Both the position numbers and the translations under genes were made by a program. A stretch of DNA of 64,000 nt from Candidatus Heimdallarchaeum aukensis (lineage in GTDB: Archaea; Asgardarchaeota; Heimdallarchaeia; Heimdallarchaeales; Heimdallarchaeaceae). The notes under the pieces were generated by a model, which saw nothing but the letters and a program-made list of their open reading frames with translations, was not told where the DNA came from and searched no databases. This document shows, piece by piece, positions 21,290-50,998 of the stretch (position 1 is the first letter of the stretch; every line of letters starts with the position of its first letter). The DNA lies in assembly GCA_021513695.1 (NCBI GenBank), contig CP084166.1, positions 864,001 to 928,000 on the forward strand, given 5' to 3'.

Positions 21290-22126
21290 CTAGTTTGAAA
21301 TATTTTTTGATTTTTAGCTTGCTTTTTTTTCATTATTAATTCATTCCTTTTTATTTTATGATTTTTCTGTTGCGATTTACTTGAATATTTAGAAACACTT
21401 CTTCTAAATCGTAATTTAGTAGCTGATTTTGCTCTCTGTCTAAATATCATCCATGAATTATCTTTTTGTTATCTTTTCCTACTCTATCAGTGGAATGGTA
21501 CAAACGATGAAATTTAAAGGTTTCAAAGTACTAACATCATCTAGGAATTATGAGACACTATTGAAGTATTTAACTCTTCGCTCAACGAGCAGCTATAATA
21601 TTCTGATTACTAGTGAATAGGTTGATTTAAGCATCTAGTTAAGGCACTTTTAGGAATGGTTTTTTTACATCTTTTCTCATTTCCAGTACCTCTTTTTGAA
21701 CATAGTTCGTTTCTTTTTTAGAGTAGATCACATAGTTATTACCAGAATCATATATAAACTAGACATTTTTTGAAGGAAGAAAATAACTGCAAAAAAGAAA
21801 CTCAAAGTTACATTCAGCCATTTTTTTAAATAAAATCACATTTCCCCAATATTCTAAAATCATTTTTACAACATTTTCAGGACTATGATACTTCATACAA
21901 TCACTTTAAAAAGATTTGAACTTGAATTTTTACAAAACTTAAAAAAATAGATTCATAACCGAATTTCAAGAGCTTCTGCAAAGATGCACTCTCATTAGCT
22001 ACATTTATTGTAAAGATGAAAGTAACTTAAAAACATTAACTATCATTTCTTTTTATTCCTACTATATGAATAAAACAATCAATTGTTAATAAGTAATATT
22101 TTTATTTTCTATCCTAATTTTAAATT

Positions 22127-27143: not shown

Positions 27144-28007
27144 TTAAATAAGACTTAATAAATACCTTCCATAATCAGAATTTGAGTGCTCTTTTGCTAA
27201 ATTTTTAAGTTGATCGGTGTCAATATATCCAAGTCTGAATGCAATTTCTTCTAAACAAGCAATATAATATCCTTGCCTTTTTTGAATAGCTGCAACAAAA
27301 TTACTAGCTTCTATTAAACCATCAAATGTTCCAGTATCAAACCAAGCTAATCCACGTCCTAATAATTTGACTTTCAACTTTCCTCTTTTTAAATATTCAA
27401 TATTAAGATCAGTAATTTCTAGCTCTCCTCTTGGAGATGGTTTAAGATTTTCTGCATATTTAATTACATTATTATCGTAGAAATATAAACCAGGTATAGC
27501 ATAATTTGATTTTGGAAAAGCTGGTTTCTCTTCTATGGAGATAACATCCATAGTTTCTTCATTGAATTCTACAACTCCAAAAGCGGTGGGATTATTTACA
27601 TAGTAACCAAAGATTAAGGCTCCTTCCTTTAAAGTAGTTGCTTTTCTTAAAATTGAAGAAAAACCTTGACCATAAAAGATATTATCACCTAAAATTAGTG
27701 CAACATTATCAGAACCAATAAATTCTTTACCAACAATGAAAGCATCAGCTAACCCTCTTGGTTTTTCTTGAATTTTATATGAAAACTGAACACCAAGTTG
27801 AGAACCATCTTTTAATAAATTCTTGTAGTCTATAATATCTCTTGCTGTTGAGATAATTAAAATATCTTTTATCCCAGCAAGAAGAAGTGAAGAAAGTGAG
27901 TAATAAATCATAGGTTTATCATAAACTGGTAGAATTTGTTTTGAAATTGCTTTTGTTATGGGATATAATCTTGTTCCTGTTCCTCCAGCCAATACAATTC
28001 CTTTCAT
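27144..28007 (-). CDS. rfbA: Glucose-1-phosphate thymidylyltransferase
   Basis: [36 protein letters not shown] is the canonical RmlA N-terminus. Confidence 0.9.
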
Positions 28008-28340
28008 TTTCTATTATAAGAAGAAAAACTCTATTCTATAAAATTTTCGTAATCATAAATCATTGTGAAATCATGAATTAATATTCTAAGGAAATACACT
28101 TCACATTTTTTTATTTTGTATTTATAAACCTAGTAAACATATTATCTATTAAGAGAAAAAAATGGAATACTAAAACATTATTAGAAACTATAATCTATTA
28201 ATGTTAGATTTGCTCGCTAACTAAAAAAATCATTGCTTATTCCTAAACAATAAAAAGAACAACTAGAAAAATAAGTATCAAAGCATTATGTTTTAAAATT
28301 TTATGTATAATACTATTTCACGTATCATGATAAGCATAAA

Positions 28341-28500
28341 CTTGGTCTAACCTACTGTAACTCCGATCTTTTTTCAACCTCTCTTACTACAATTTTAGCC
28401 TTGCTCACCAGTCTATTAACTTCCTAACTTTGGAAAATAATTTATGAACCAACCCTAAGTTTTTGACATTCAAAAGTGTAACCCCCTATAGAGAGTGAAT
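28341..28500. repeat. Intergenic repeated element, copy A (intact); a homologous copy at 43246-43317 plus 44081-44200 is split by the IS6-like insertion
   Basis: Shared core cttggtctaacctactgtaactc[c/a]gatct...tttt...cctctcttactacaatttt. The downstream cttcctaac...aataatttat...caaaagt[gt]taaccc blocks align by eye between the two loci. Confidence 0.5.
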
Positions 28501-33427: not shown

Positions 33428-34687
33428 TTAATTAGATAGATCAGATTCTCTGTTTTTAAGACATATTAAGATCACCGCTAAAAATTCTACAATATTTGCA
33501 ATCAAAATAGAATATCCAACAGCTAAATAACCAATATATATCACGCCTATAATCATCGTTGGAATACAAGTAATTGCATATATTAAATGAAGCTTAAATG
33601 CATATTTTGATTCTCCTTTAGAATTCTTATACATTATAAAGACAAAATTGAACACGGAGAAAAAAATACCTAAAGAAAGCAACATTAAGAGTTTAAAACT
33701 ATATACAGAATAATTTACGCCAAAAAAGTTTAAAAAAAAGTCGCCAAAAATAAAAATTATTATAATTCCAATCACAACGAGTATTAATGCAAAAAATAAT
33801 GTTTCTAAAGCATTCCTTTTACTTGAATCATGTGAAACATGCGCAAGCATAGTTTGCGAAATAATTTTAGGAATCATTGCAATTATAGCGCTAAAAGTCC
33901 CTGCAATAAAGAGATAAGCTGAATATTCAACTCCGACTATTTTTGCAACGATTGTAGGTGCCAATAATCCGGGTACCCTATAAAAAATGGTGGCAAAATA
34001 ATTATCAAACGAAAAATTAAATGTGTCTTTCAGTAAACGAATATTCACTCTACTAGTAATAAAAGCACTAAAAAGGAATTTAAAATTAACGAAAAATAGA
34101 GATAAAACTAGAATCGTGATACCTATAGCTACTCCCCAACTAAGGAGAAGACCAAATACATCTATATCTTTAGTGATAAAAATAAGACCAATTTTTAATG
34201 ATGAAGCTAACGATGCAGAAATCAGGCTATACTTACTTTTATTTGATGCCAAGAAGTACGAATCATAGAAAACATAAGTTACTTGGAAAATGGAAGTAAT
34301 TACAAAAAACAATATTATGGAAAAAGGCAAGTAATATAATAGTTCTTTCATAGTAAGTAAAAGTATTATAATTACTACTGTACTTGTTACTGTGCTGTTA
34401 CATAATAGTAATTTCAAATAGGTTCCAAATAATTCTTCTATTTTATATTGTTCTTTAAATTTAAGTATCGAGATATTTAATCCAATCATAGAAATTAATG
34501 TTATTAGATTAATATTTGATACTAAAGTTGAATTTATACCAATAATATTAGGTGGATATATCCTTGAACCTATTAGCCAAAATATAAAACCTGAAATCGA
34601 ATTTATTGCGAATGAAAGCATTTGATAAATACTATTTTGATATAACGGTTGTTTAATGAAATCTTTCATTGATTTTCTTAATGTCAC
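33428..34687 (-). CDS. MOP-superfamily (Wzx-like) flippase
   Basis: 419 aa, about 12 TM helices, with polysaccharide-biosynthesis-protein-like topology. Confidence 0.55.
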   Translation of the reverse strand: MTLRKSMKDFIKQPLYQNSIYQMLSFAINSISGFIFWLIGSRIYPPNIIGINSTLVSNINLITLISMIGLNISILKFKEQYKIEELFGTYLKLLLCNSTVTSTVVIIILLLTMKELLYYLPFSIILFFVITSIFQVTYVFYDSYFLASNKSKYSLISASLASSLKIGLIFITKDIDVFGLLLSWGVAIGITILVLSLFFVNFKFLFSAFITSRVNIRLLKDTFNFSFDNYFATIFYRVPGLLAPTIVAKIVGVEYSAYLFIAGTFSAIIAMIPKIISQTMLAHVSHDSSKRNALETLFFALILVVIGIIIIFIFGDFFLNFFGVNYSVYSFKLLMLLSLGIFFSVFNFVFIMYKNSKGESKYAFKLHLIYAITCIPTMIIGVIYIGYLAVGYSILIANIVEFLAVILICLKNRESDLSN

Positions 34688-35740
34688 AAGTATTTAGCAA
34701 AAAAGTTTTTTTATATATTTATTGATATTGTTAACTCAACAGATACAAGTTACACTCACGGAGAGATAAAGAGTCAAGAAGACATTCATAAATCTTTTAT
34801 TTTACCAAGGGTAAAGAGACTATGCCTTTAAGGGGACAGGATGTTGTAATAATCACAAAAACGTTGAAGGACAGTGTTACTTACACTAAGTGAGATCTAT
34901 ACGGTTCATCTCTTGGACAATAACTCCAAGGAGATGTTCAACTCTTCAATAAGTTTCAAGGTGATGGATCTGTGAGCTGATGCAGCCGATAACATGGGTT
35001 TGACACCGTTTATCACCATTAGAAGAAGGTACTCGTTTCTCTTTGTATTGTGTGAAAGAGTACTCCATCGTTGGTTAGAATCTGTTGAGGAAGAGCATAG
35101 TTTTGCATAGCTTGATCTAAAAATTGGGACATATCTAAAGTTTTAACTGTGTGAGAATAGAATTTTGTTGCTACATATATCGAACCGTAGGTGATTACTA
35201 ATTACACTCACGAAGTAGAGGTGTTGGCCTTATTCTTCTACCCGAAGGGCGCTCTAATAGATATTCGTCAAAAGTCGTTAGGTTTAGTTTTCTCGAATCT
35301 TTTTGTTCTCTTGTAAAATTAGCTGTTTTTCTCTATTTCTTTTCACTCTTTTTTTATAGTACTTTATTTATTATAAATGCCCCTCCTGTCTTAAGAATAA
35401 GCAATCTTGACTATATTAACTTTATATTTGCTCCTACCTATGATTGTATGTCTTCTTTCTATAACTTTCTTCTTTATTCACTTATTGATGATTTTTCTAC
35501 TTACTATATATTCTCTTGCTATTTAAGCTACTCTCACCCTTACAAAACTTCTTTAACTACTCTTTTCTAAGTTTTCTAGTTTACGTTTAGGTTTCATGTT
35601 TAATTAGTCACTTGCTCTTTGTAACCCTTTCTTTTACACCATTATCAAGGCTGGTTTAGTAAACAAGGGGTTTCAATTTAAAACATACTATTTAAAAATC
35701 AAATCTAAATTATTTTAAATGCTTTACAATAGTTGTATTT

Positions 35741-36790
35741 ATGGAGAAAAAATTCAAAAAAATTGCAATAGTAGAATTCGTGAGAACTCATTATGATTTT
35801 ATAATTTCAGTTCACGAATATTTATATAAAAAAGGATATAGAGATATTAAAATTCTAACATCATCAGAAATTTGGAAAGATATAGAATATCAACTAATAA
35901 AAATTGAAAATCATATTAATCCTACAAATGTATTTACAGCAGGTAAAGTAAAAAATTATTTCTATATTCTAAAGAATAATTTTGATGTTATTTATTTTAA
36001 TAGTTTTTACTATAGTTGGAAGAATATTATTGGTTTATTATTGCTAAAAATTTTAAAAAGAGACACAGATATAATATTAACTTTACACAATATTAGACGT
36101 CATTTTGAATATAAATCCAAGTTTAAATTTGCTCCTTTGAAAAAAATACTTATAACTGTTATAGATAAAAAAATCAATAAATATATTGTGCTTAACGAAA
36201 AATTGAAAGAATTTGCATCAAAATATACTAAAAAAGAAATTCTTGTAATACCCTTTAAAATACCCCTCAAACAAGAGATACTAACTGTTTACAAATATTC
36301 TTCTAGTTTTTATAAAATAATTATACCTGGTATAATTTCAAATAAAAGAAGAAATTATGATGAGTTAATCAAAGTAATAAAAAATGTTTTAAGTAAACGA
36401 ACAGATTTTAAATTTATACTTCTAGGAAGAATCGTATCAAAAGAGTTAATAGTCCCCCTTACACGTCTCAAACAACAGTTCCCCCAAAACATACAATTTT
36501 TCAGTAGTTATATCGAACAAGAATTGTTTGAAAAATACGTAATTGAATCAGATATTATTTTAGCGCCAATTAGGAAAAATGTCGATAGCAACCCTCAAGA
36601 ACAATATGGTTTAACAAAAGCTTCTGGTATTGAATTTGATGCTTATAAATATAAAAAACCAATATTAATTCCCAGTTTCTATGAAATACAAAATGATAAT
36701 ATTGATGTTACATATTTCAATACATATGATGATCTGACAAAAATACTGTTAAAATATCCGAAAAAAGATAGCTTTTTAATGAGTGCTTAA
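35741..36790 (+). CDS. Hypothetical protein, possibly a glycosyltransferase-like Rossmann protein
   Basis: 349 aa soluble K/I-rich ORF in the glycan locus with no diagnostic motif. Confidence 0.35.
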   Translation: MEKKFKKIAIVEFVRTHYDFIISVHEYLYKKGYRDIKILTSSEIWKDIEYQLIKIENHINPTNVFTAGKVKNYFYILKNNFDVIYFNSFYYSWKNIIGLLLLKILKRDTDIILTLHNIRRHFEYKSKFKFAPLKKILITVIDKKINKYIVLNEKLKEFASKYTKKEILVIPFKIPLKQEILTVYKYSSSFYKIIIPGIISNKRRNYDELIKVIKNVLSKRTDFKFILLGRIVSKELIVPLTRLKQQFPQNIQFFSSYIEQELFEKYVIESDIILAPIRKNVDSNPQEQYGLTKASGIEFDAYKYKKPILIPSFYEIQNDNIDVTYFNTYDDLTKILLKYPKKDSFLMSA

Positions 36791-37529
36791 AGGCTTCTAA
36801 AAACTCTAAGATAATAAATAGTGCTGAGTATAGTGTCGTATGTTCAATTTATAAAGCATAGACTCAGAAAAATAGATGAACACCCACAATTACTTAAACC
36901 TTTATTTCAACCTAGATTCCTTGATACCCCTACTAACAAACAGGTCGAGAAGGAAGATTAAAACAGTGAGAACGGGCTGGATAGTAGCCTTAGCGCTGAT
37001 ATGTGCGTCTTTTTCTACGAGATAAGAACAGTATACAGAGCGGTTAAACCTTGTGAATAAGAAAATACAAAGTATAACACAACATACATTCCGCAAAAAA
37101 CATCCATCTTCAACGTTTGCACAGAGATAAAAAACTCCAAATAGTCCACACAATCACGTTAATAGTAAGAATGCTTTGCTCTTCTCCCGAAACAGTAGAA
37201 GAGGACAGGACAGGATTCAAGGTAAAAGGGGGTTGATTTAGAGTATTGCTAATGGAGTCACGCTTTACATAAAAACAAAGTCATTTTGGAAAGTCCACAA
37301 GATTATAGATTCCCCGATATTCATCCTCTCGGTTGCCCTCTCTCATTTCTACCGTTATAACCCCACACGAACAAGAGCATTTTTCAGAACCTAGAGAAAA
37401 AGACTTCTATGTAGAATTAGAAGATTTCATGCAGATAAAGCCCATCATAACAACAAACTGGGAGGGGGTTTCTCATCCAAGAGAGAATCAAATTTATTAT
37501 CGAACTAAAACGTAAACGTCGATCATGAC

Positions 37530-38330
37530 CTAATTATATAAATCACCTTTTTTTCCTTTGGGGATTGCTAATAAATAACCTTGTATCGTATCTCTAATGT
37601 CTGTGAAATCTCTAAATGGATTAGGATTACCTATAATTATTTCCTTATTTTCGCTTTTAAGAATCTTTGCAATCTGATTAAAAATTACTAAAGTTACAAA
37701 CATAATTTCTCTGTTTGGTCCAGTATTATTATATCCTCTTGTAACAACAATAGGCAATCCATACATACTATGATATTTAAGACTAAATTGTTCAGTAGCT
37801 ACCTTACTAGCTTCATATGGAGACTGTGGTCTAAGCGAATTGTTTTCATTAATAGGTATTTCGCCTAGAGATGGTAATCCATATTCTACACTACTCTCTG
37901 CAATCTGAATATCAATATCTAAATCTGAATTTCTTATTATTTCTAAAAGATTTACAGTACTTTCAATATTTGTACGTACAGCTTCAATAGGCCCCCAAAA
38001 TGAGAAAAGAACAAGACTGTGCTGGTAAGTGAAAGATATAACTTGGTTGGACTTCTTTGATAGTTATTTCTAATGATGAATAATCAATAAGATTAGCTTC
38101 CTTAAGTATAGTTTTATTAAGAAATTTATCAATTTTTGGATTTATTGGATTAGATTGTCTTCTTACAATACTATAAATTTCAACTTCTTGTTCCACAGAT
38201 AGTATTTTTTCTACTAAAGAGCTACCTACAAATCCTAATGTGCCAGTAATCAGAACCTTTTCTTGATGAAAACATGATTTGTCATACAGATCTCTTTTTT
38301 CTTTAGAAAATTTATTTTTATATTCATTAA
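37530..38330 (-). pseudogene. Degraded paralog of the Gmd-like GDP-mannose 4,6-dehydratase at 48601-49704
   Basis: Fragments in different frames align to the intact gene. KVLITGTLGFVGSSLVEK matches RVLITGITGFVGSHLAEK. VRRQSNPINPKI...EANLIDYSSLE...PSYIFHLPAQS matches VVRRQSVPNFPNI...EANLIDYSSLE...PDYIFHLAAQS. YGLPIVVTRGYNNTGPNRE...IIIGNPNPFRDFTDIRDTIQGY matches YGLPIVITRGFNHTGPRRG...IIIGNPKPIRDFTFIEDMIQGY. Frameshifts and stops interrupt them. Confidence 0.75.
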
Positions 38331-38688
38331 TATTGTCTGGATATATTAAGAATTTGCTTGTTTCTCATATATTTCTCAGTAAATTTTATCTTCAAAGAGC
38401 ATAAATAAACTAACGCTTTCTTAGTTTTTAAATTTAATAGCAAGTATTTTAATTTAAACTCATTATTTTTTCAATTTTTTTTTAAAAAAATTTGAAGAAT
38501 AAAATGTAAGAATGAACAAACTTAAAATTAATAATTAAATTCTGCTTCATTAAAATGCATTATTTACTATTTAAATTGTAACTAAATACATAAATACATA
38601 TATACACATATTATTGAAAATAATAAGATAACTTTAACAAACAAATTTATTACAAAAAATAAGAAAAACTTCACATTGGGGGAAATTT

Positions 38689-39387
38689 ATGACAGAAGGA
38701 AAATACAATAATCTAGTTATATTAATTCCAACGCTAAATGAGGAAGATTCTATTGGTTATTTAGTGAACTCATGTAAAAAATTGACAGATAATGTAATTG
38801 TTGTTGATGGGTTATCAATTGATGATACAGTGGTAATCTCTAAGAAAGAAGGGGCAGAAGTGATTTATTGCAAGAAAAAGGGAAAAGGTAATGCTATTAT
38901 AGACGGTTTAAAATACGTATTGAAGAAACCAAATATTGAATATATCGCATATTTGGATGGAGATAGTACATATGACCCTTATGACATAAAAATTCTGTTA
39001 GACAAGATGTTAAATGAAAAAAAACTTGATGTAATAATTGGTAACAGATTACCAAAAAGAGAAAAAGGTTCTATAAAATTTATAAATATAATTGGCAATT
39101 ATTTATTTTCTTTTTTAATTAGTCTAATAAGTAGGGTAAAAATAAGTGATTCACAATCAGGTCTTCGTTTATTATCTAAAAAAGCAACTATGATATATTC
39201 AGATTGTCTAGAGTCTTCTGGTTTTGATATTGAAACTGAAATGATCATTAAAGGGTCGAGAAAAGGTATTAAATTTGGTGAAGTTCCTGTTAGCTATAGG
39301 TGTCGTGAAGGAAATTCTAAACTTAATCCTTTTAGAGATGGATTTAAGATTTTAAAAACGATTATAAAATATAGTTTTAAAAGATAG
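38689..39387 (+). CDS. GT2 dolichyl-phosphate sugar synthase-like glycosyltransferase (Dpm1/AglD/AglJ-type)
   Basis: LVILIPTLNEEDSIGYLVNSCKKL...VVDGLSIDDT...YLDGDSTYDP matches the GT-A architecture of polyprenyl-phosphate glycosyltransferases. 232 aa. Confidence 0.75.
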   Translation: MTEGKYNNLVILIPTLNEEDSIGYLVNSCKKLTDNVIVVDGLSIDDTVVISKKEGAEVIYCKKKGKGNAIIDGLKYVLKKPNIEYIAYLDGDSTYDPYDIKILLDKMLNEKKLDVIIGNRLPKREKGSIKFINIIGNYLFSFLISLISRVKISDSQSGLRLLSKKATMIYSDCLESSGFDIETEMIIKGSRKGIKFGEVPVSYRCREGNSKLNPFRDGFKILKTIIKYSFKR

Positions 39388-39479
39388 AATTTATATTCAT
39401 CTTACACTAAACTATAGTAATCAGATTTCTTTATATAAAACTATTTTTAATCCTTCATTCTATAACATTATAAAATTCT

Positions 39480-40309
39480 CTCCACGTTGATGTTTTAAAT
39501 TTATAAATGATATTAAAAAACTCTTATGGTGCACTTCCAAGGTGTTACAAATACAGACATAGATTGTACTTGAAATAATAGAGAATAAGACGCTTATGAT
39601 GATGGAAGAGAAGACGGTCACGCAACGAGATGAATACAAGTTTGATGAAAACAAAAATGTTTTCTACGGCAGATTTACAGGACACACAGAAGTGTTTTTA
39701 TTTACACAACCAGTGATAAGACTGTTAAAGACGTATTGAACGGTCTTGGAGATAACCTGTCTCATGGGTGGATTCGTGAAAGAAACGATAAAAATGAGTT
39801 AGCAAAAAAATACAAACATATTGATCCAAGATTTCTTTTTGTAAAAAAAAGATATAATTTAAGACCAACTGAAATACAAGGAGCATTTGGAATTCAACAA
39901 CTCAAGAAACTTGAAATATTCTTACGAACTAGAGAAGAAAATGCAAAATTTTGGATAGATAATTTGAACAAATATAGAAGCCTTATTCACATTCCAAAGA
40001 CTGAAACAAATATAAGACATGCATGGTTTGGATTTCCAATAGTTATTTATGAAAAAGCTGGATTTAAACATGATGATTTCATTAAAATATCTTGAAAACA
40101 ATAATATTGAAACTCGTCCAATTATGGCAGGAGATATAATTGAACACCCCGCTATGCACTATTATAACTGGAAACAAGTAAGAACACTAGAAAACTCTTC
40201 AAAGATAATAAAAAATGTTTTCTTCGTTGGAAATCATAGTAGCATTAAACAAAAAGAAAGAGAATACATTATGGATGTAATGAAATCATTTTTGGAAAAA
40301 AACACCTAA
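39480..40309 (+). pseudogene. Degraded C-terminal half of a DegT-family enzyme, paralog of 49730-50998
   Basis: TSDKTVKDVLNGLGDNLSHGWIRERNDKNELAKKY...RYNLRPTEIQGAFGIQQLKKLEIF...NNIETRPIMAGDIIEHPAMHYYNWKQ aligns to the intact copy (HGWIRERKDRSILAKKY...GYNLRPTELQGAFGIHQIKKLDDF...NNIETRPIMSGNITEHPALKYFKWRK). It is split over two frames. The upstream part is a GC-elevated, stop-rich remnant. Confidence 0.7.
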
Positions 40310-40344
40310 CTTTTTTTTAAATATTCATTAAAATCTTTTCTTTT

Positions 40345-41349
40345 AAAGCATGTCCAAAAATTAATTTTTATTAATGTGGGGGTTTATGTCGGAAGTATGA
40401 GTTTCTTTCAGATCATAGACCCCCACAAAGCAAGAGAATTCATAATCATTAATGAACCTTTCCTTAAGAAACTGGTGAAAGAGGAACCGAGAGAAAGTAA
40501 GAGAGGGAGAAAAAGAATAGCAGAAAGGTGGGTGATACTGGCTTTAGCGATCATTGCGAGAATAGAAGGAATTGCTTGGAGGAAGTTAGAGGAAAAGTTG
40601 TCTTTATGCGATTTTTTGATAGAAGAGGGGTGGATGAAGAAGATTCCTTCCAAATCTACTTTTCATGCAGTGTGGAGAGCGACAGAAAGTAAGTTGCTGG
40701 AGCGGTGGATAATAGATTTAGGTAGGGAAATAGTAAGGAAAAAAGGGTTGAAAGCTATGTCGGTGGATAGTTCAGGTTTTAAAATTCGTCAAGCTTCTGT
40801 TTGGCGTTTTCTCAAGTGGGCAAGAGGAGGACTAAAGAAAACCTCCAAACTTTTCTGGAAGATACACCTTATAGTTGGTTTACCCTCTCGAGCTATAGTC
40901 TCTCTTGCTCATTCTGCTAGTAACACTCACGATAGTAAAGTCTTCGGTTTACTATGGCAGAAACTTCCTTCTGCACTCTTGAGACCTTTCTTGAGATTCT
41001 ATGGAGACTGCGCTTACTGGACAGAAAATATCGTGGGACTTCTTAGCCAACATTCCTTTTTTCCTGTTATTCCTCCAAAAAGTAATGCTCGTTATCCCTC
41101 TCCTCCTCCTCTTGGACCAATAGTTCAAGCTCATCGTCTCTACCCTGGTCTCTATCGTCATAATCACCACCCCGAGTATCGTAGTAGTATTGAACATGTC
41201 TTTGGTCTCCTCAAACTCTCTCTTCCCCCGATTCTTGATCGCTTACCCTCCACCATCCTCTCTACCTTGTACAGTTCTCTTCTCTGTTACAACTACCTTT
41301 TACTCCTTCGGACTGTATAGTTGGTGAAAAAGAATTTTTGGACATGCTT
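40345..41349 (+). mobile_element. IS4/IS5-superfamily insertion sequence, copy 1 (about 1005 bp, 18-bp perfect terminal inverted repeats AAAGCATGTCCAAAAATT)
   Basis: Identical to the copy at 47464-48469 over its whole length except for one A insertion in copy 2. The inverted repeats were read at both ends. Flanks suggest a 3-bp duplication (TTT here, AAT at copy 2), but AT-rich flanks make that weak. Confidence 0.85.
40376..41320 (+). CDS. DDE transposase of the IS4/IS5 superfamily
   Basis: C-terminal YRSSIEHVFGLLK fits the R-x3-E-x6-K (YREK) signature of IS4/IS5 transposases. The ORF fills the element. Confidence 0.8.
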   Translation: MGVYVGSMSFFQIIDPHKAREFIIINEPFLKKLVKEEPRESKRGRKRIAERWVILALAIIARIEGIAWRKLEEKLSLCDFLIEEGWMKKIPSKSTFHAVWRATESKLLERWIIDLGREIVRKKGLKAMSVDSSGFKIRQASVWRFLKWARGGLKKTSKLFWKIHLIVGLPSRAIVSLAHSASNTHDSKVFGLLWQKLPSALLRPFLRFYGDCAYWTENIVGLLSQHSFFPVIPPKSNARYPSPPPLGPIVQAHRLYPGLYRHNHHPEYRSSIEHVFGLLKLSLPPILDRLPSTILSTLYSSLLCYNYLLLLRTV

Positions 41350-41397
41350 TTTTAATAGAACATTAAATATTTATATCTATATATTATGTAACTATCA

Positions 41398-42585: not shown

Positions 42586-43030
42586 ATGGATATAAAAATG
42601 GACATTAATAAATTCAAAAATCAAAACATCTTGATAATTAGTGAAAATGGTTTTATTGGTTCTCACCTTTTTCTAAAGCTTAGACATTTATCTAAAAATA
42701 TTATTAGAACAGTTTATTCACATAATTCAGAGAAAAATCAATTGTACAAATTTTACTATATCCATGTATTATTTGTTCAGCTGATGATTTAGAAGATGAA
42801 TATGCAATTGATGGGATTTAATAGATGTGTTTCATCTATAGGTAAATATTTAGTTTTTCCATAAACCAGACCAGATGATGAAAATACAAATTTTGAATCC
42901 TCTTGATATTTTCTAATGTTTTCCATTATATTTAAAGTTCCAAAAGTATTGACTTGATAACAAAGCTCTGGCTTTTTTATTGATTCATAAACATCAATTA
43001 AACTTGCTAGGTAATATATGATATTGAAAT
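42586..43030. pseudogene. Disrupted NAD-dependent sugar epimerase/dehydratase: N-terminal fragment on + strand (42586-42792) and the following mid-gene segment inverted on - strand (~43030 to 42790)
   Basis: The + strand encodes NILIISENGFIGSHLFLKL (Rossmann GxxGxxG start). The - strand encodes YLASLIDVYESIKKPELCYQVNTFGTLNIMENIRKYQEDSKFVFSSSGLVYGKTKYLPIDETH, which is the segment that normally follows in the same orientation. The C-terminal part is absent. Confidence 0.55.
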
Positions 43031-43245
43031 TTTAAAATTATTACAATAATATCCTACAAACGATTTGGTTATACTATTAAGATATATAAGTGAAGTAGAT
43101 AAAATAAATAAAAACTACCTCACTTTTAAATCTTTATAAGTTTAGTTCTTTATAAATTTTGGTTAATCTTACTACATTTTTCTCATTATAATACTTTTTT
43201 TTATTATTTTTTTATTTATCATGAGACATTCATGAAATGTAGAGA

Positions 43246-43317
43246 CTAGGTCTAACCTACTGTAACTCAGATCTCTTTTTTTCTTCCTCTCTTATTACAA
43301 TTTTCCCCCTTCACTAG
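43246..43317. repeat. Left half of repeated intergenic element copy B; the right half resumes at 44081
   Basis: ctaggtctaacctactgtaactcagatctc...cctctcttattacaatttt matches 28341-28395. Confidence 0.45.
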
Positions 43318-44080
43318 GGTAGTGTCTAGTTTTTATACCACCTCCTAGGTAAAAAGGAACTAAGGGGAGGATGTCCCAAGCTCTGATGAGGACGAACGAA
43401 ATTATAATGGAGCATAAAGAGAGTAAGAAAACCAGAAAGATGAGTAGAGCCATAGACGGCACGGATAGGACAAGTGCAGTGGAGAATAGAATGAAACCAA
43501 CGATAACTCTTAAGAGTAGCATTAAAACGTTCAATATAGGAGCGTAAACCACCTTTGATAACGGAGATTTTGATACCTAGACGAAGTAAGACAGGATACC
43601 ATACCCCTGCATCTGTAACGACAATACGGGGCTTAAAACCCCAACATTTGAGCCAATAACGGAAAGTTAGTAAACATTCAAGATTACTCCGTCCTTTAGT
43701 AATACTAAAACCCAGTAAAGTCTTGTTGTAAGGATCTAACGCGAACCACAGATATATTGAGCCTTGAGAGGTCCTAATCTCTGTTTCATCTACTACTATA
43801 ATCTCTGGTATTCCCCCTCTCTCTGCTACAACTCTATGTAAACTTTCCCTAAAGAGCCTGAACTTCTTTACCCAATACCATAATGTTTGATGCGTTAAAC
43901 CATTCTTCCATGCTACTGTCCTCAACCCATTCTTTGAACCAATATATTCATAAATCGCTTTTATTATTATTTTTTTGGGGACTCTGCATCTCTTAAAAAG
44001 AGCAGATAGTTTTTGTGTTTTCATATCTTACTATTAGAGTCCCCACAAATATTTTTGTCGGAAGAAAACTAGACACTACC
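43318..44080 (-). mobile_element. IS6-family-like insertion sequence (about 763 bp, 16-bp perfect terminal inverted repeats GGTAGTGTCTAGTTTT, 9-bp direct target duplication CTTCACTAG)
   Basis: The inverted repeats start with GG as in the IS6 family. The CTTCACTAG duplication sits at 43309-43317 and 44081-44089. The single ORF spans almost the whole element. Confidence 0.75.
43326..44024 (-). CDS. DDE transposase, IS6-family-like
   Basis: 232 aa. VVDETEI, VVTDAGVWY and IERFNATLKSYRW blocks resemble the D, D and E/K regions of IS6/IS26-type transposases. There is an N-terminal HTH-like region. Confidence 0.7.
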   Translation of the reverse strand: MKTQKLSALFKRCRVPKKIIIKAIYEYIGSKNGLRTVAWKNGLTHQTLWYWVKKFRLFRESLHRVVAERGGIPEIIVVDETEIRTSQGSIYLWFALDPYNKTLLGFSITKGRSNLECLLTFRYWLKCWGFKPRIVVTDAGVWYPVLLRLGIKISVIKGGLRSYIERFNATLKSYRWFHSILHCTCPIRAVYGSTHLSGFLTLFMLHYNFVRPHQSLGHPPLSSFLPRRWYKN

Positions 44081-44437
44081 CTTCACTAGCCTCCTAACCT
44101 TCTTATATTAGAGAAATAATTTATTAAAAGAAACATTTTTCTAGTACCCAAAAGTATAACCCATGTCTATCGAGTGAACAACTAGGGAAATAGTAATCAA
44201 AAATTCTTCATATATTGAATAATCTGATATTGGATATTTGAAATTAAGTCCAATTTCCGCTTACAAATTCCTCTTTTGAAGTTTTGTATATACTTCTTTA
44301 TACATGCATATTATAAAATGAAAACATAAGCTTAATTTATATTCTTCTTTTTGACATATTATTTTAATCATTATAGAGAAAAATAGAGTTTCAATTAGAA
44401 AAAATAAATTTTTATTATAGAAAAAAAATATTAACTT

Positions 44438-45830: not shown

Positions 45831-46202
45831 TTTTTAAATTATTGTATTTTAATCTTCATTGATGAATATAAAAATTAATTTGGTTATATATAAAAATCTA
45901 TATCAATTTTAATATGGCTTTTAGAAAATAAAATTTATTTTAGTTTTAAAACAATGAAGAGGATTATTTAAAAGAAAATTGTTAAAAGAAAAAATTAATA
46001 TTCATAAGTTCACATAAAATAGCCACAAACTATTAAGATAATGGAATAAATAGGAAACAGATATTCATATGACTATAAAAGTATATGATTTTTGTCTTTT
46101 AGAATAGAAAATACAAATTTTTTTTGTAGATGTAATTCTAAATATCCCTTTACTTTTAATAAAAACCTAATCTTTATAATAAGATTAGTAATTATTCTTC
46201 AT

Positions 46203-47333
46203 ATGGATAAAGTTATAATAATTGGTCCCTCTTCAAAATTCTTAAGTGGTATCACATATTATACAATTAATATAGCAAATTTGTTAAGAAAAGATAAAAA
46301 AATTTTTATTTTTGAAATAGATCAATTATTACCAAAATTTTTATTTCCTGGGTCAGGAAGAGTGGGTAAAATACAAACAATCTCTACTTATAAAGAAGAA
46401 GTCTCAGTTAGCCATATTAAAATGAAATATTATTCAATACCTTCAATAATTAAAGCAGCAAAGTCTATAAACATGTTAAAACCAAAGGTAGTAATCTTTC
46501 AATGGTGGTCTTGTACAGTAGCACACATTTATTATTTTTTAATAAAACTTATTTCAAAAGAGATTAAAATCATTTTTGAGTTTCATGAAATTTTAGATAC
46601 AAGCGAAGCTTCATTTTTTCTTCTAAAAATTTATACGAGTTTGATGATGAAATTGTTGTTAAAGGAAGTTACAATATTTATAACTCATTCAGTTTCCGAT
46701 AAGAAAAAAGTAATAAAAACTTATAAAATAGATGAAAGCAAAATTCAAGTTATACCTCATCTTACAACAACTACCTATTCTTTAATAAGTAAAAATATTG
46801 CTAGAAAAAAATTTAATTTACCAATGAACTCAATCGTCTTGGTATTTTTTGGATTAATTAGAAAATATAAAGGAATCAACATTTTAGTTAAAGCTTTTGA
46901 ACAATTAAAAATAAACAGCTTAAAAAAGCCATTACTTATTATTGCTGGAGAGATATGGGATCCATTAGACAAGAAAACTAACAAGATAATAAATGAAAAT
47001 AGAAATATTATTCTTATTAACAAATACTTATCAGATGAGGAGGTAGAATATTTAATCTCTGCTGCAGATTGTTTTGTATTACCATATACTAGAGCATCTC
47101 AGAGTGGAGTATTAAGTATAATACATAATACAGGCAAACCTGTAATATTATCTGACATAAAAGAATTCGTGGAAGCTTCAAAACATTATAGTAATTCTAT
47201 TTTCTTTAAGAGAAATGATATTATAGATTTAAAATCAAAAATAGAAAAATTCACTAAAAATCATAATGATTTTAATATTAAGCCAGTTAACAACAATGAA
47301 AGAGTTAAAGAATTATATCTTTCTGTAATGTAA
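46203..47333 (+). CDS. GT-B (GT4-like) glycosyltransferase
   Basis: Likely start MDKVIIIGPSSKFLSGITYY; the ORF track begins 37 codons earlier. The C-terminal nucleotide-sugar-binding-like region ISAADCFVLPYTRASQSGVLSIIHNTGKPVILSDI is a degenerate EX7E. Confidence 0.55.
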   Translation: MDKVIIIGPSSKFLSGITYYTINIANLLRKDKKIFIFEIDQLLPKFLFPGSGRVGKIQTISTYKEEVSVSHIKMKYYSIPSIIKAAKSINMLKPKVVIFQWWSCTVAHIYYFLIKLISKEIKIIFEFHEILDTSEASFFLLKIYTSLMMKLLLKEVTIFITHSVSDKKKVIKTYKIDESKIQVIPHLTTTTYSLISKNIARKKFNLPMNSIVLVFFGLIRKYKGINILVKAFEQLKINSLKKPLLIIAGEIWDPLDKKTNKIINENRNIILINKYLSDEEVEYLISAADCFVLPYTRASQSGVLSIIHNTGKPVILSDIKEFVEASKHYSNSIFFKRNDIIDLKSKIEKFTKNHNDFNIKPVNNNERVKELYLSVM

Positions 47334-47463
47334 TTATATATTTCTAAAAGAGGAGATAAAATCATTGTTACGCTTACAGACAAGCTATTATGAATCGAAA
47401 TTCTCAAATGAAAGTAATATTATATGTTTTTGTCTATCTTCAATTAAATATTAAATAATTAAT

Positions 47464-48469
47464 AAAGCATGTCCAAAAATTAATTTTTATTAATGTGGGG
47501 GTTTATGTCGGAAGTATGAGTTTCTTTCAGATCATAGACCCCCACAAAGCAAGAGAATTCATAATCATTAATGAACCTTTCCTTAAGAAACTGGTGAAAG
47601 AGGAACCGAGAGAAAGTAAGAGAGGGAGAAAAAGAATAGCAGAAAGGTGGGTGATACTGGCTTTAGCGATCATTGCGAGAATAGAAGGAATTGCTTGGAG
47701 GAAGTTAGAGGAAAAGTTGTCTTTATGCGATTTTTTGATAGAAGAGGGGTGGATGAAGAAGATTCCTTCCAAATCTACTTTTCATGCAGTGTGGAGAGCG
47801 ACAGAAAGTAAGTTGCTGGAGCGGTGGATAATAGATTTAGGTAGGGAAAATAGTAAGGAAAAAAGGGTTGAAAGCTATGTCGGTGGATAGTTCAGGTTTT
47901 AAAATTCGTCAAGCTTCTGTTTGGCGTTTTCTCAAGTGGGCAAGAGGAGGACTAAAGAAAACCTCCAAACTTTTCTGGAAGATACACCTTATAGTTGGTT
48001 TACCCTCTCGAGCTATAGTCTCTCTTGCTCATTCTGCTAGTAACACTCACGATAGTAAAGTCTTCGGTTTACTATGGCAGAAACTTCCTTCTGCACTCTT
48101 GAGACCTTTCTTGAGATTCTATGGAGACTGCGCTTACTGGACAGAAAATATCGTGGGACTTCTTAGCCAACATTCCTTTTTTCCTGTTATTCCTCCAAAA
48201 AGTAATGCTCGTTATCCCTCTCCTCCTCCTCTTGGACCAATAGTTCAAGCTCATCGTCTCTACCCTGGTCTCTATCGTCATAATCACCACCCCGAGTATC
48301 GTAGTAGTATTGAACATGTCTTTGGTCTCCTCAAACTCTCTCTTCCCCCGATTCTTGATCGCTTACCCTCCACCATCCTCTCTACCTTGTACAGTTCTCT
48401 TCTCTGTTACAACTACCTTTTACTCCTTCGGACTGTATAGTTGGTGAAAAAGAATTTTTGGACATGCTT
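47464..48469 (+). mobile_element. IS4/IS5-superfamily insertion sequence, copy 2 (identical to copy 1 apart from a single extra A)
   Basis: Same inverted repeats and internal sequence as 40345-41349. gggaaaatag here versus gggaaatag in copy 1 (~47836). Confidence 0.85.
47495..48440 (+). pseudogene. IS4/IS5 transposase gene, frameshifted (split into 47495-47890 and 47868-48440)
   Basis: A 1-nt insertion in an A-run breaks the reading frame relative to copy 1. This could be a genuine inactivating mutation or a homopolymer sequencing error. Confidence 0.75.
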
Positions 48470-48600
48470 TAATAATTAAATACTAAATAATAATTTAATA
48501 ATTAAATATTAAATAATAAAAAAATTTATTTTGGAATACATATTCTATTTTAATTTCTAAAAGAAAAAAATATAAAAATATTTGAATCTTTACATTAAGT

Positions 48601-49704
48601 ATGTTATCAGAAAAAGAAATTTTCCGTGAAATAAATGCTAAACATAAAAAAATTCTTATAGATCCTGAAAATTTAGATTCTTATTTGTCAAATTTTGATA
48701 AAGAAAAAAAAGATTTATTTGATCCAAAAAAACTAGAAGGTTCTAGGGTTTTAATTACCGGTATTACCGGATTTGTAGGAAGTCATTTAGCAGAGAAACT
48801 TGTAGGATTAGACTCTGATATTGATGTTTATGGTGTTGTGCGAAGACAATCTGTACCTAACTTCCCAAATATTAAACATATTGTTAATGACATAAATCTA
48901 ATAGAAGCAAATTTGATAGATTATTCTTCTTTAGAACATACTATTAATAATGTAGAACCAGACTATATTTTCCATCTAGCAGCTCAATCTTTTGTACCAA
49001 CTTCTTTTATTGCACCAATTGAGTCTGTAACAATAAACATTCAAGGAACAGTAAATTTACTTGAAATTCTTCGTAAAAGTGAAATTAATTTCAGTGGAAT
49101 TCAAGTTGCCTGCAGTAGTGAGCAATATGGACTTGTCTATCCTGATGAAGTTCCAATAAATGAGAACAATCCATTTAGACCACAATCACCTTATGCTGTT
49201 AGTAAAATAGCAACTGAAAAATATAGTTTAACTTATCATAGAGCTTATGGTTTACCAATTGTAATTACAAGAGGTTTTAATCATACAGGTCCAAGAAGAG
49301 GAATAAAGTTTGTTACTTCAGTAATCGCAAGTCAAATCGCAAATATTATTAATGGCAAAGGAAATAAGATAATAATCGGAAACCCCAAACCAATAAGAGA
49401 TTTTACATTTATTGAAGATATGATACAAGGATATATTTTATCAATAATAAAAGGAAAAAGAGGTGAGGTTTACAATCTTGGTCATGGATTTGGAATTAGT
49501 ATAGAGAATTTGATTAAACTTACTGCATCTATTTACGATGTTAGCTATGAAATTGAAATTGATAAATCAAGATATCGACCAGCAGAGGTAAACATTCTTG
49601 TATGTGATTATTCAAAAGCTAAAAAAGAACTAGGTTATTATCCACAATATTCGTTAGTTGAGACTATCAGAAAAATTGTTGAATTTTACTTAGAAAAAAC
49701 GTAA
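48601..49704 (+). CDS. gmd: GDP-mannose 4,6-dehydratase-like (Gmd family) NDP-sugar dehydratase
   Basis: RVLITGITGFVGSHLAEKL, VVRRQS, DYIFHLAAQSFV, PYAVSKIATEKY (YxxxK) and especially GFNHTGPRRGIKFVT resemble Gmd blocks (IVRRSS, YNLGAQSHV, FNHESPRRG) recalled from memory. It has a 45-aa N-terminal extension. Confidence 0.7.
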   Translation: MLSEKEIFREINAKHKKILIDPENLDSYLSNFDKEKKDLFDPKKLEGSRVLITGITGFVGSHLAEKLVGLDSDIDVYGVVRRQSVPNFPNIKHIVNDINLIEANLIDYSSLEHTINNVEPDYIFHLAAQSFVPTSFIAPIESVTINIQGTVNLLEILRKSEINFSGIQVACSSEQYGLVYPDEVPINENNPFRPQSPYAVSKIATEKYSLTYHRAYGLPIVITRGFNHTGPRRGIKFVTSVIASQIANIINGKGNKIIIGNPKPIRDFTFIEDMIQGYILSIIKGKRGEVYNLGHGFGISIENLIKLTASIYDVSYEIEIDKSRYRPAEVNILVCDYSKAKKELGYYPQYSLVETIRKIVEFYLEKT

Positions 49705-49729
49705 TCTTAAATTATAGGGTGATTTTATA

Positions 49730-50998
49730 ATGAAGTTAGAAACAGCATTGAATGAAATTAAGAATATTGTAGATATGTATTTCTCTGAAAATGATATTTA
49801 TAAAGATGAAACGAAGATAAGGCTTATTGCTCCTTCATATGGAACTAAAGAAGTGATAGAAGTAATAGAATCACTTCTTTCCACTAATGTAACAATGGGT
49901 AAAAAAGTTAGTGAATTTGAAAATATGTTTTCAACATACTTAAATGTGAAATATGGTACTATGGTAAATTCTGGTTCAAGTGCAAATTTAATAGCTCTTC
50001 AAATTTTATCAAATCCTGCTATTAGAAATAATATTAAACCTAAAGACGAAATTATTACTCCAGCTTTAACTTGGTCTACTACTGTTTTTCCAATGTTTGA
50101 TATTCATGCAGTTCCTGTATTTGTTGATGTGGATCCTAAAACTTTGACTATTGATGTTAACCAACTAAAAAGCGCTTTATCTAAGAAAACTAAGGCAATA
50201 ATGCCAGTTCATCTTTTAGGTCATCCATGTGATATGGACTACATAACAGAATTTGCTGAAGATAATTCATTGTACATAATTGAAGATTGTTGTGAAGCTC
50301 ATGGAGCAATGTGGAAAGGTAAGAAAGTTGGTAGTTTTGGTGATATCGGTACTTTTAGTTTCTTTTTTTCTCATCATATATCTACGATAGAGGGTGGGAT
50401 TGTTGTTACTAATAACGAAGAATATAATCTTTTATCAAAATCTTTGAGGGCCCATGGTTGGATTCGAGAGAGAAAAGATAGGTCGATTTTAGCTAAAAAA
50501 TATCCTTTTATCAGTGAAAAATATCTTTTTATAAATAAAGGATATAATTTAAGACCTACAGAACTTCAAGGCGCATTTGGAATACATCAAATTAAGAAAT
50601 TAGATGATTTCATTAAAATTAGAGAAGAAAATGCAAAATATTGGTTATCTGAACTTGATGAAATAAAGCATCTTATACAGTTACCAACCATTAAGAAAGA
50701 TGTTAAGCATTCATGGTTTGGTTTTCCCTTAATAGTTAAAGATGAAGCTCCATTTAAAAAAGATGACTTAATTCAATATCTTGAATTAAATAACATTGAA
50801 ACTCGTCCAATTATGTCAGGTAACATTACAGAACATCCAGCTTTAAAATATTTCAAATGGCGTAAGATCGGTAATTTGGAAGTATCCTCGAAAGTTATGA
50901 AGAATGGCTTTTTCTTTGGTAATCATCTAGGTATTAAAAACTACGAAAGAGAATTTATTGCGGAGAAAATTAGAGAGTTCATAGATTATAAAACTTAG
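49730..50998 (+). CDS. DegT/DnrJ/EryC1-family PLP enzyme with His replacing the Schiff-base Lys: ColD-like NDP-4-keto-6-deoxyhexose 3-dehydratase rather than a classical aminotransferase
   Basis: The block GSFGDIGTFSFFFSHHISTIEGGIVVTN aligns to the family consensus ...SFhgnKiittgEGG... with H at the K position, read by eye. The remaining blocks (HGWIRER, NIETRPIM) are standard DegT. Confidence 0.65.
   Translation: MKLETALNEIKNIVDMYFSENDIYKDETKIRLIAPSYGTKEVIEVIESLLSTNVTMGKKVSEFENMFSTYLNVKYGTMVNSGSSANLIALQILSNPAIRNNIKPKDEIITPALTWSTTVFPMFDIHAVPVFVDVDPKTLTIDVNQLKSALSKKTKAIMPVHLLGHPCDMDYITEFAEDNSLYIIEDCCEAHGAMWKGKKVGSFGDIGTFSFFFSHHISTIEGGIVVTNNEEYNLLSKSLRAHGWIRERKDRSILAKKYPFISEKYLFINKGYNLRPTELQGAFGIHQIKKLDDFIKIREENAKYWLSELDEIKHLIQLPTIKKDVKHSWFGFPLIVKDEAPFKKDDLIQYLELNNIETRPIMSGNITEHPALKYFKWRKIGNLEVSSKVMKNGFFFGNHLGIKNYEREFIAEKIREFIDYKT

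Follow-up and report, generated by a model that had tools for sequence, protein, structure and literature searches.

Two GC-rich gaps in a polysaccharide gene cluster of Candidatus Heimdallarchaeum aukensis as probable halves of one decayed IS5-like insertion sequence

Insertion sequences (IS) of the archaeal ISH1-like group, which ISfinder places in the IS5 family, are ~1 kb long and create 8-bp duplications. In both bacteria and archaea, gene clusters for surface polysaccharides undergo decay and rearrangement associated with IS. For Candidatus (Ca.) Heimdallarchaeum, 11 transposase/integrase families have been reported, with as many as 27 copies in one genome (Wu et al. 2022, PMC8813620).

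Here, we describe a window of the Ca. H. aukensis genome, by which is meant the whole 64-kb stretch of DNA that was analysed. It holds a polysaccharide cluster with IS copies, truncated duplicates, and blocks that appear to be rearranged. In these respects the locus is like other IS-decayed polysaccharide clusters, whereas the breakpoints here lie inside an IS and not at IS ends. Two IS copies of the window serve as the reference for what follows.

40344-41352, + strand: IS5-like IS copy 1, intact; transposase at 40376-41320; no target duplication
47463-48471, + strand: IS5-like IS copy 2, differing from copy 1 only in a 1-nt insertion, which breaks the ORF in two; perfect 8-bp duplication ATAATTAA

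As in the IS5 family (DDE_Tnp_1, PF01609), the element is ~1 kb long, encodes a single transposase of about 310 aa with a DDE triad, and has short terminal inverted repeats (TAAAGCATG...); copy 2 also has the 8-bp duplication, and transpos_IS5_2 is the best NCBIfam model for the intact transposase. In contrast to recognized family members, the intact transposase scores below or near the NCBIfam and Pfam curated cut-offs (67 bits versus 140 for IS5_2), and membership in an IS5 subgroup is therefore not established. The protein shares 98% identity with a transposase of Ca. H. endolithica and has 48 relatives, almost all of them from Heimdallarchaeia; the sequence cluster that contains P0001 has 70 members. 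The intact copies thus belong to a multi-copy family of the kind described by Wu et al. (2022, PMC8813620) for the same genus. As far as the account of multi-copy families in that paper extends, however, it counts intact repeats of at least 95% identity and does not describe decayed relics and a rearrangement such as those found here.

GC-rich stretches of the window

The GC content of the window is 28% overall, and the mean in 300-nt sliding windows is 0.284 (sd 0.051). All IS elements of the window have a GC content of 37-41%, compared with 28% for the genome. Apart from the stretches listed below, every block with a peak GC of at least 0.39 is an insertion sequence.

33428-34684: flippase, 100% identical to a Ca. 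H. aukensis protein; its promoter region adjoins segment 1
34744-35295 (or 34750-35295), no strand assigned: segment 1, GC 0.379 (~38%) over either span, ORF-free (none of at least 50 aa), between the flippase promoter region and the pyrimidine-rich spacer
35296-35740, no strand assigned: pyrimidine-rich spacer, GC 0.265, upstream of the glycosyltransferase-like gene
35741-36790, + strand: glycosyltransferase-like gene between segments 1 and 2, 349 aa, intact, orphan, GC 0.233; weak Pfam match to Glyco_transf_4 (E=7.6e-4)
36851-37529: segment 2, GC 0.378 (~38% at 36852-37529)
39503-39769: third stretch, GC 0.352 (~35% at 39494-39769)

A sequence-only reading of this DNA had pointed to segments 1 and 2 as GC-elevated and free of ORFs of at least 60 aa, and to a third, similar stretch in front of a DegT-like pseudogene. 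The raised GC of both segments was confirmed (0.379 and 0.378 versus the mean of 0.284), and so was that of the third stretch (0.352). The absence of ORFs holds for segment 1 and not for segment 2, which contains two mechanical TTG-start ORFs, one of 83 aa (36902-37153, - strand) and one of 60 aa (37333-37515, + strand).

Transposase homology of segment 2 and the third stretch

Segment 2 is what is left of a DDE_Tnp_1/IS5-like transposase gene, and so is the third stretch; both belong to the transposase family of the IS at 40344-41352 and 47463-48471. The homology was measured with a family profile of 309 columns made from 36 sequences. In an hmmsearch, the profile matched 37272-37466 on the + strand (columns 148-213, E=2.4e-6) and 39539-39769 on the - strand (E=5.4e-7). 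By frameshift-aware profile-to-DNA alignment, segment 2 scores 74.9 bits versus 17.1 +/- 2.4 for shuffles (z=24), and the third stretch 40.5 bits versus about 16 +/- 2 (z=10.5); on the opposite strand of each, the profile alignment is no higher than for shuffles. Single-sequence alignment controls gave z=12 and z=7, respectively. The idea of a degraded foreign insertion, also raised by the sequence-only reading, is upheld by this homology for segment 2 and the third stretch, and segment 1 lacks such support.

36844-36851, no strand assigned: left target-duplication-like flank of the IS relic, TCAATTTA; 7/8 match to the reverse complement of 39486-39493
36852-37527, + strand: 5' part of the IS relic (segment 2), transposase profile columns 10-233, ~7 frameshifts and 4 stops; left end TAAAGCATAGAC
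39486-39493, no strand assigned: right target-duplication-like flank of the IS relic, TAAATTTA
39494-39766, - strand: 3' part of the IS relic (third stretch), profile columns 232-304, 2 stops and 0 frameshifts; right end TAAATGATA (+ strand)

The elevated GC of both pieces is due to their IS origin, and GC peaks in the Ca. H. aukensis genome are a good flag for IS-derived DNA. Two of the three unannotated GC-rich gaps in this circularised Asgard genome are explained as mobile-element debris. Six-frame searches miss heavily frameshifted relics, whether run against Pfam, NCBIfam, or billions of proteins; decayed relics were recovered only by family-specific, frameshift-aware alignment.

Segment 2 and the third stretch are likely to be inert DNA, left over from the decay of a single IS5-like (DDE_Tnp_1) IS of which each makes up one half. 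The profile coverage of the two pieces is complementary (columns 10-234 on the + strand and 232-304 on the - strand), and re-inverting 37528-39762 in silico yields a single in-frame element of 945 bp. The rejoined element follows an uninterrupted path from column 10 to column 304, in frame over the junction, with 111.3 bits versus 18.2 +/- 2.9 for shuffles. The homology of both pieces, the complementary coverage, the opposite strands, and the in-frame restoration were all computed directly. The rejoined element aligns over 282 columns by hhalign (probability 99.6%, E=1e-23) and has DDE_Tnp_1 as its sole Pfam match (E=0.025), two results that are not fully independent because the corrected frames were picked with the same profile.

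The relic keeps the DDE triad (D of EEDRTGF, D of HADKAH, and E of AVENIF), which aligns with D131, D211, and E273, residues that are invariant in the family. Its ends, TAAAGCATAGAC on the left and TAAATGATA on the right, show a possible resemblance to the inverted repeats of the family (TAAAGCATGTCC in the intact IS), and only about 8 of 10 positions agree between the left and the right end. After re-inversion, the outer flanks TCAATTTA and TAAATTTA match at 7 of 8 positions; the sequence is AT-rich, and the chance of such a match is roughly a few percent. With 7 frameshifts, 6 in-frame stops, and a split in two, the transposase ORF is not translatable, and the relic is therefore not an active element. 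It differs from IS5-family elements in being non-functional, in its division into two inverted pieces, and in its identity of 26-29%, measured end-to-end on the rejoined relic, to members of the family.

Breakpoints, pseudogenes, and the proposed rearrangement

The points at which the IS relic is split coincide with the truncated ends of two pseudogenes, both of which have intact paralogs in the window.

37525-38402, - strand: NDP-sugar 4,6-dehydratase ("Gmd-like") pseudogene, residues 1-295 of about 367; 3 frameshifts and 1 stop
37528-39762, no strand assigned: block that was probably inverted, bounded by CATG at 37524-37527 and 39763-39766
38689-39387, + strand: family-2 glycosyltransferase (GT2) gene, intact, inside this block; Pfam E=2e-18
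39763-40309, + strand: sugar aminotransferase (DegT family) pseudogene, residues 242-422; 1 frameshift; begins at the junction B CATG
48601-50998, + strand: intact dehydratase-aminotransferase operon, paralog of both pseudogenes, with CATGG at the breakpoint-homologous codons

The neighbours suspected of being Gmd-like and DegT-like pseudogenes are indeed frameshifted, truncated copies of the 48601-50998 operon. The dehydratase pseudogene shares about 55% aa identity (170/309) with the product of 48601-49704 and stops at the CATG of junction A (37524-37527), with no DNA homology beyond it. The aminotransferase pseudogene is about 79% identical in places to 49730-50998 at the nucleotide level. 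The truncation points of both pseudogenes, also computed directly, fall at codons where both intact paralogs have CATGG. The aminotransferase pseudogene seemed to continue into the third stretch (+ strand), but this was rejected as an alignment artefact (z=1.1-1.6). As to the proposal that an insertion inactivated the Gmd-like gene, the IS itself did not disrupt the dehydratase; what stands is that both pseudogenes are truncated at the breakpoints of the rearrangement that split the IS.

In the proposed history, a ~1-kb IS of a family still active in the Ca. H. aukensis genome would have inserted between two convergent glycosyltransferase genes and created an 8-bp target duplication. A subsequent rearrangement may have taken place at three CATG sites, one each in the IS, the duplicated 4,6-dehydratase gene, and the aminotransferase gene beside it. 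It would have deleted about 0.96 kb, comprising the 3' end of the dehydratase and the 5' 57% of the aminotransferase, and inverted the 2.24-kb block 37528-39762, which would leave the 5' part of the IS on the + strand and its 3' part on the - strand. Frameshifts and stops would later have built up in all disabled sequences. For a simple inversion, the truncated dehydratase and aminotransferase would have to be joined beforehand, and an extra deletion or a three-break event is therefore assumed. The breakpoints fall on a 4-nt palindrome within the IS, away from its ends, and the element is therefore regarded as a passive target of the inversion rather than its agent. The history of the relics is one of ordinary genome decay, and the loss of a duplicated sugar-modification operon is documented at the locus.

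We infer the inversion itself, the order of events, and the role of CATG; the inversion is read from one genome because no syntenic uninverted copy was found in close relatives among representative genomes and metagenomes. When RmlA was used to look for synteny, the only loci obtained were distant ones from bacteria and methanogens. The homologous polysaccharide cluster of Ca. H. endolithica contains IS relics too. Its GT2 ortholog (locus L085, 2142-2834; 84% identical to 38689-39387) is divergent from the ortholog of 46092-47333, which corresponds to the restored orientation and not to the present one. The restored gene order, dehydratase followed by aminotransferase, is that of the intact operon 48601-50998.

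The two pieces could instead be separate, opposite-oriented IS copies, each truncated by its own deletion, with no inversion, in a locus that is rich in IS and for a family whose copies are abundant. Such copies would have to agree by accident in their truncation points, within 2 of 309 profile columns, on opposite strands, and in a frame that joins with no residues missing or duplicated; the joint chance of this coincidence in truncations, strands, and frame is well under 1%. Outer flanks that are 7/8 alike, as from a single insertion, and a restored order that matches both the intact paralogous operon and the Ca. H. endolithica orientation also make this explanation unlikely, even though copy 1, intact and without a target duplication, shows that other IS-linked rearrangements occurred at the locus. 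Some room is left to it by an ambiguous zone of 45 nt at junction A (37480-37523), across which the truncation points could differ by about 16 codons. An extension of the dehydratase through this zone on the other strand scores 7.0 bits at the protein level, a value reached in 0 of 200 null trials, and at the DNA level the extension is not significant (P=0.10 and 0.42). If 37480-37523 belongs to the dehydratase, the 5' piece of the IS ends near column 216, and the fit of the two halves of one IS is less exact.

The CATG at the breakpoints is only 4 nt long and, like the AT-rich 7/8 flanks, is a weak supporting detail.

Segment 1 and its surroundings

Segment 1 is the only loose end of a finding that bears on no open biological question. 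It contains two copies of the motif TTACACTCACG[GA]AG.

34750-34763, + strand: motif copy 1, TTACACTCACGGAG
35202-35215, + strand: motif copy 2, TTACACTCACGAAG

These copies had been placed at 34751 and 35197, about 445 bp apart, in the sequence-only reading; they are present, with positions that differ by 1 and 5 nt and a spacing of 452 bp. Over 20 nt, the two copies agree at 17 positions (17/20), around an exact core of 11 nt. As a noteworthy feature it does not hold up, being no more than expected by chance: when the same 1053 nt are dinucleotide-shuffled, 25% of the shuffles contain an exact direct repeat of at least 11 nt, and a 17/20 repeat occurs in 35% of real 1-kb tiles of the window. 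A 10-nt identity of the motif with the intact IS (ACACTCACGA) is likewise expected by chance.

Homologs of segment 1 were not found in six-frame scans of Pfam, NCBIfam, and PHROGs or in a PDB sequence search, nor in comparisons with plasmids (tblastn), with plasmids and phages (blastn), and with viral contigs (one pattern scan). A six-frame concatenated word search of 5.8 billion proteins also gave no match, a result of little weight given that true relics are missed by it too. The longest open piece, of 78 aa, had no match by exhaustive phmmer, and frameshift-aware alignment to all ORFs of the window and to 1872 ORFs of other loci produced no outlier. Against the IS5-like transposase profile, the two strands of segment 1 score 18.9 and 14.5 bits, which is the shuffle level (single-sequence z=-0.2 and -0.5). 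Proteins of the IS6-like and TnpB/IS605-like elements of the window and of an IS4/ISH3-like element of Ca. H. endolithica also gave shuffle-level scores, with working positive controls. The residual codon signal is z=-0.3 and -0.7 in a weak test, in which true relics reach only about z=2.

Several candidates were rejected. Relics of rve/IS6, IS630, or DDE type, suggested by eye from "ILTNDG", "IEELN", and "GSIY", have shuffle-controlled z values of about 0-1. A weak match to a WD40-like ORF was judged to be a multiple-testing effect. The similarity of the right edge of segment 1 to L085 3571-3688 (123 nt, 64%) is mostly T-rich low complexity, in an orientation that is wrong for synteny.

From composition only, we infer that segment 1, too, most likely derives from foreign or mobile DNA that has decayed; anything said of this segment is to be read in the same way. 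It is doubtful that it is the leftover of a site-specifically integrated element or a non-autonomous transposon, with the ~20-nt repeats at 34744-34763 and 35196-35215 as att sites or a target duplication. The repeat is real, with its 17/20 identities and exact core, but at chance level; the left copy is at the left edge of the GC-rich block, but the right copy is about 80 nt inside it and not at an edge; and segment 1 resembles the mobile elements of the window in GC, but it has no terminal inverted repeats, no second copy in the window, and no match in viral contigs, plasmids, or phages. Equally doubtful are two further ideas, that segment 1 is not debris but an unrecognised noncoding element of Heimdallarchaeum, and, separately, that the CATG breakpoints arose by restriction-endonuclease-type cleavage and mis-ligation and not by random microhomology joining. 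A noncoding segment 1 could be a ~550-nt transcript starting just downstream of a TATA-like box at 34709-34716, or a new non-autonomous mobile element.

Structured noncoding RNA genes, which are conspicuous by their GC in AT-rich archaeal genomes and had been offered as another possibility for the GC-rich blocks, are a very improbable explanation: the blocks are about 10 points above background in GC, and a putative segment 1 transcript of ~550 nt could lie between the TATA-like TTTATATA (34709-34716) and T-runs at 35293-35357, but a scan with Rfam 15 covariance models found no family at the gathering threshold or even at E<=10, there are no tRNAs, whole-segment folding energies (MFE) have z-scores of +0.54, +0.33, -0.23, and +0.63, 98 local windows of 120 nt have a mean z of +0.12 and a minimum of -2.68, and segment 2 and the third stretch are accounted for by transposase homology.

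An open frame of 122 codons at 35202-35567, which overlaps the pyrimidine-rich spacer, has no early start codon, and matches nothing in Pfam, is probably a composition artefact. The 349-aa gene that follows (35741-36790) has no relatives in representative genomes and a single 26% match in metagenomes, and it shows a strong coding signal.

A decayed IS in two pieces

The sequence-only reading had proposed GC elevation in three stretches flanking or following an intact gene, and this elevation is real and sharp: the three have a GC content of 0.352–0.379, against a mean of 28.4% for the window.

34750-35295: segment 1, GC 0.379
35741-36790: enclosed gene, GC 0.233
36851-37529: segment 2, GC 0.378
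39503-39769: third stretch, GC 0.352

All blocks in the window that peak at a GC of at least 0.39 are an IS or an IS relic, with the exception of segment 1. Segment 2 and the third stretch together represent an ordinary IS, heavily decayed and rearranged, and the overall finding is a useful annotation rather than a discovery. Ordinary six-frame searches of the stretches gave no match. With the window's own ORFs as queries, tblastn placed the transposase of the intact IS on the segment 2 + strand in a weak colinear match. An HMM built from 36 aligned family members and run on six-frame translations found two matches in addition to the intact IS copies, and both pieces were also scored by a purpose-written, frameshift-tolerant profile-to-DNA alignment, in which dinucleotide shuffles reach about 16–17 ± 2.4 bits.

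37272-37466, + strand: HMM match, columns 148-213, E=2.4e-6
39539-39769, - strand: HMM match, columns 232-307, E=5.4e-7
Segment 2, + strand: frameshift-tolerant alignment, 74.9 bits, z=24
Third stretch, - strand: frameshift-tolerant alignment, 40.5 bits, z=10.5

In this alignment the opposite strands of both pieces and both strands of segment 1 stayed at shuffle level. When a single intact transposase with BLOSUM62 replaced the profile as a control, the relics still reached z=12 and z=7, which shows that the method has power.

Both pieces belong to a single element. Segment 2 covers profile columns 10–234, ending at 37529, and the third stretch continues from column 232 at 39769 on the opposite strand. 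Joining 36830–37528 to the reverse complement of 39440–39761 restores a single uninterrupted alignment over columns 10–304, with the reading frame kept over the junction (...ELKRN-VDHETGYLQDR...) and a score of 111.3 bits, against 18.2 ± 2.9 for shuffles. The restored element carries 7 frameshifts and 6 stops. In hhalign its corrected peptide fits the family alignment (probability 99.6%, E=1e-23, 282 columns); the sole Pfam match of this peptide is DDE_Tnp_1, below threshold (E=0.025). The relic is 26–29% identical to family members end to end, keeps the catalytic D, D and E, and is 945 bp long when restored, compared with 1009 bp for the intact IS. Its ends, TAAAGCATAGAC at 36852 and TAAATGATA at 39494–39502 (+ strand), are similar to the family terminus TAAAGCATGTCC. 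Outside these ends, the flanks TCAATTTA and TAAATTTA match at 7/8 positions; intact copy 2 is flanked by a perfect 8-bp target duplication, ATAATTAA. Despite its frameshifts and stops, the relic still has a GC of about 37% (genome 28%); either GC loss in decay is slow here, or the original GC was above that of the intact copies (41%). On the + strand of the third stretch, an apparent continuation of the DegT-like aminotransferase pseudogene was not significant (z=1.1–1.6).

Junctions and a proposed rearrangement

The neighbouring "Gmd-like" gene is, as proposed, a pseudogene, and the break in the IS lies where it ends.

37524-37527: junction A, CATG
37525-38402, - strand: "Gmd-like" pseudogene, paralog of the intact 4,6-dehydratase 48601-49704
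39763-39766: junction B, CATG

It matches the product of 48601-49704 at 170/309 aa, with 3 frameshifts and 1 stop, and its last residue is 295 (...YNLGH). The DegT-like pseudogene has as its first residue 242 (HGWIRER) of the intact paralog 49730-50998. In both intact paralogs CATGG stands at exactly these truncation codons; the IS is likewise broken at CATG (GAT CATG AGACAGG in the restored element), and one CATG is left at each present junction. Re-inverting 37528–39762 gives the following order: glycosyltransferase-like gene (+), complete IS (+), family-2 glycosyltransferase GT2 (-), AT-rich divergent spacer, dehydratase' (+), aminotransferase' (+). This is the order of the intact operon, minus the ~964 bp that separate the two CATGG sites. 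In the Ca. H. endolithica locus L085 (CP084167.1, 980920-1001486), the GT2 ortholog (84% identical) is divergent and adjoins a 77%-identical ortholog of 46092-47333; its relative orientation fits the restored arrangement and conflicts with the present one. We infer that the rearrangement would have taken place at CATG microhomologies, either in one event with three breaks or as a deletion and then an inversion.

In the 45 nt that adjoin junction A on its left, the IS alignment has an above-null extension (7.9 bits), and so, on the other strand, does that of the dehydratase (7.0 bits). Since the dehydratase extension is not significant at the DNA level (P=0.10 and 0.42), this zone is assigned to the IS.

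Segment 1 and the alternative readings

Structured noncoding RNA, the other reading offered for these segments, found no support. Rfam at gathering thresholds had no match in the whole window and, at E<=10 over 34400–40000, nothing beyond a chance snoRNA match within a coding gene; ARAGORN found no tRNA. Folding energies of both segments on both strands equal those of shuffles (z -0.23 to +0.63), and across 98 local 120-nt windows z averages +0.12 and is -2.68 at its lowest, as chance predicts. The repeated motif has copies at 34750 and 35202, but direct repeats of the same quality are common. An exact one of at least 11 nt occurs in 25% of region shuffles and 68% of real 1-kb window tiles, and a 17/20 direct repeat in 6% and 35%, respectively; the motif therefore carries no information. 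The absence of ORFs holds for segment 1 (none of at least 50 aa) and fails for segment 2, where two mechanical ORFs, 83 and 60 aa long, start at TTG.

A degraded foreign insertion was the right description for segment 2 and the third stretch, by transposase homology; for segment 1 no homology was found. Segment 1 had no match in protein-family libraries, PDB, a word search over 5.8 billion proteins, plasmid and phage BLAST, one viral-contig scan or the rest of the window, and its longest open piece had none in an exhaustive phmmer search of 1.84 billion representatives. Frameshift-aware alignment gave no outlier against the products of the window's 65 long ORFs, the IS6-like, TnpB and IS5-like proteins, or an IS4/ISH3-like element from H. 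endolithica; against 1872 ORFs from 81 polysaccharide-cluster loci the maximum was 32 bits, on a smooth tail with no outlier. Residual codon signal, a weak test, was absent. Segment 1 shows no sign of function. Its GC is like that of the mobile elements of the same genome, the sole and circumstantial reason to regard it as a remnant of foreign DNA.

A polysaccharide cluster with mobile elements

The surface-polysaccharide gene cluster in this region includes RmlA-D-like genes, several glycosyltransferases, a sulfotransferase and a flippase, and is broken up by IS5-like, IS6-like and TnpB mobile elements. The flippase (33428-34684) is 100% identical to a Candidatus Heimdallarchaeum aukensis protein. 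According to Wu et al. (PMC8813620), Ca. Heimdallarchaeum genomes contain abundant multi-copy transposase families.

40344-41352 and 47463-48471: 1009-bp IS with DDE_Tnp_1 transposase, copies 1 and 2
~43306-44090: IS6-like element
~57471-59350: TnpB element
L085 2841-4158: ORF-free gap, 1.3 kb, downstream of the GT2 ortholog
L085 4159-5304, - strand: IS4/ISH3-like gene broken into three ORFs
L085 7899-8114 (within 7650-8114): decayed IS5-like relic, E=2e-6

The related cluster of the sister species H. endolithica likewise holds decayed transposase fragments. L085 3571-3688 and window 35234-35354 share a 123-nt match (64%) that is largely T-rich. The intact transposase 40376-41317 is 98% identical to one on CP084167.1 and has 48 relatives, nearly all in Heimdallarchaeia. 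Besides the last base of copy 1, the sole difference between the two IS5-like copies is one additional A within the A-run near 47850; it breaks the copy 2 transposase ORF into 47495-47890 and 47868-48440. Copy 1 has no target duplication and a different final base, which suggests that it was involved in a later rearrangement.

A ~110-nt repeat at 28322-28430 and 43227-43326 has an exact 20-nt core, GGTCTAACCTACTGTAACTC, with none expected by chance. At 43.3 kb the repeat continues into the IS6-like element's left inverted repeat. The copy at 28.3 kb, which has rmlA on one side and the sulfotransferase gene on the other, resembles a solo end of this element; otherwise the element reaches farther left than its obvious inverted repeat. 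Adjoining the same element is a 68-aa ORF (42586-42792) whose start resembles an NAD-dependent epimerase/dehydratase (…ISENGFIGSHL…) and which then stops short, probably a further truncated sugar-pathway gene. The 57471-59350 element is TnpB-only: its 486-aa protein matches NCBIfam guided_TnpB (E=1e-21), TTACGTAA stands at either end, and a nearly pure purine leader of ~190 nt runs from the left end to the start codon.

Among 185,579 representative genomes, the closest relatives of RmlA (27144-28007) are in Methanobrevibacter and Clostridia (68–70% identity), with zero Asgard among the best 80 matches; the rhamnose genes of the cluster look horizontally acquired. The 637-aa ORF at 19537-21450 (-) has tandem repeats of 135 nt (45 aa) in seven or eight copies, 63–76% identical, and three 69-nt repeats, which suggests a repeat-domain surface protein.
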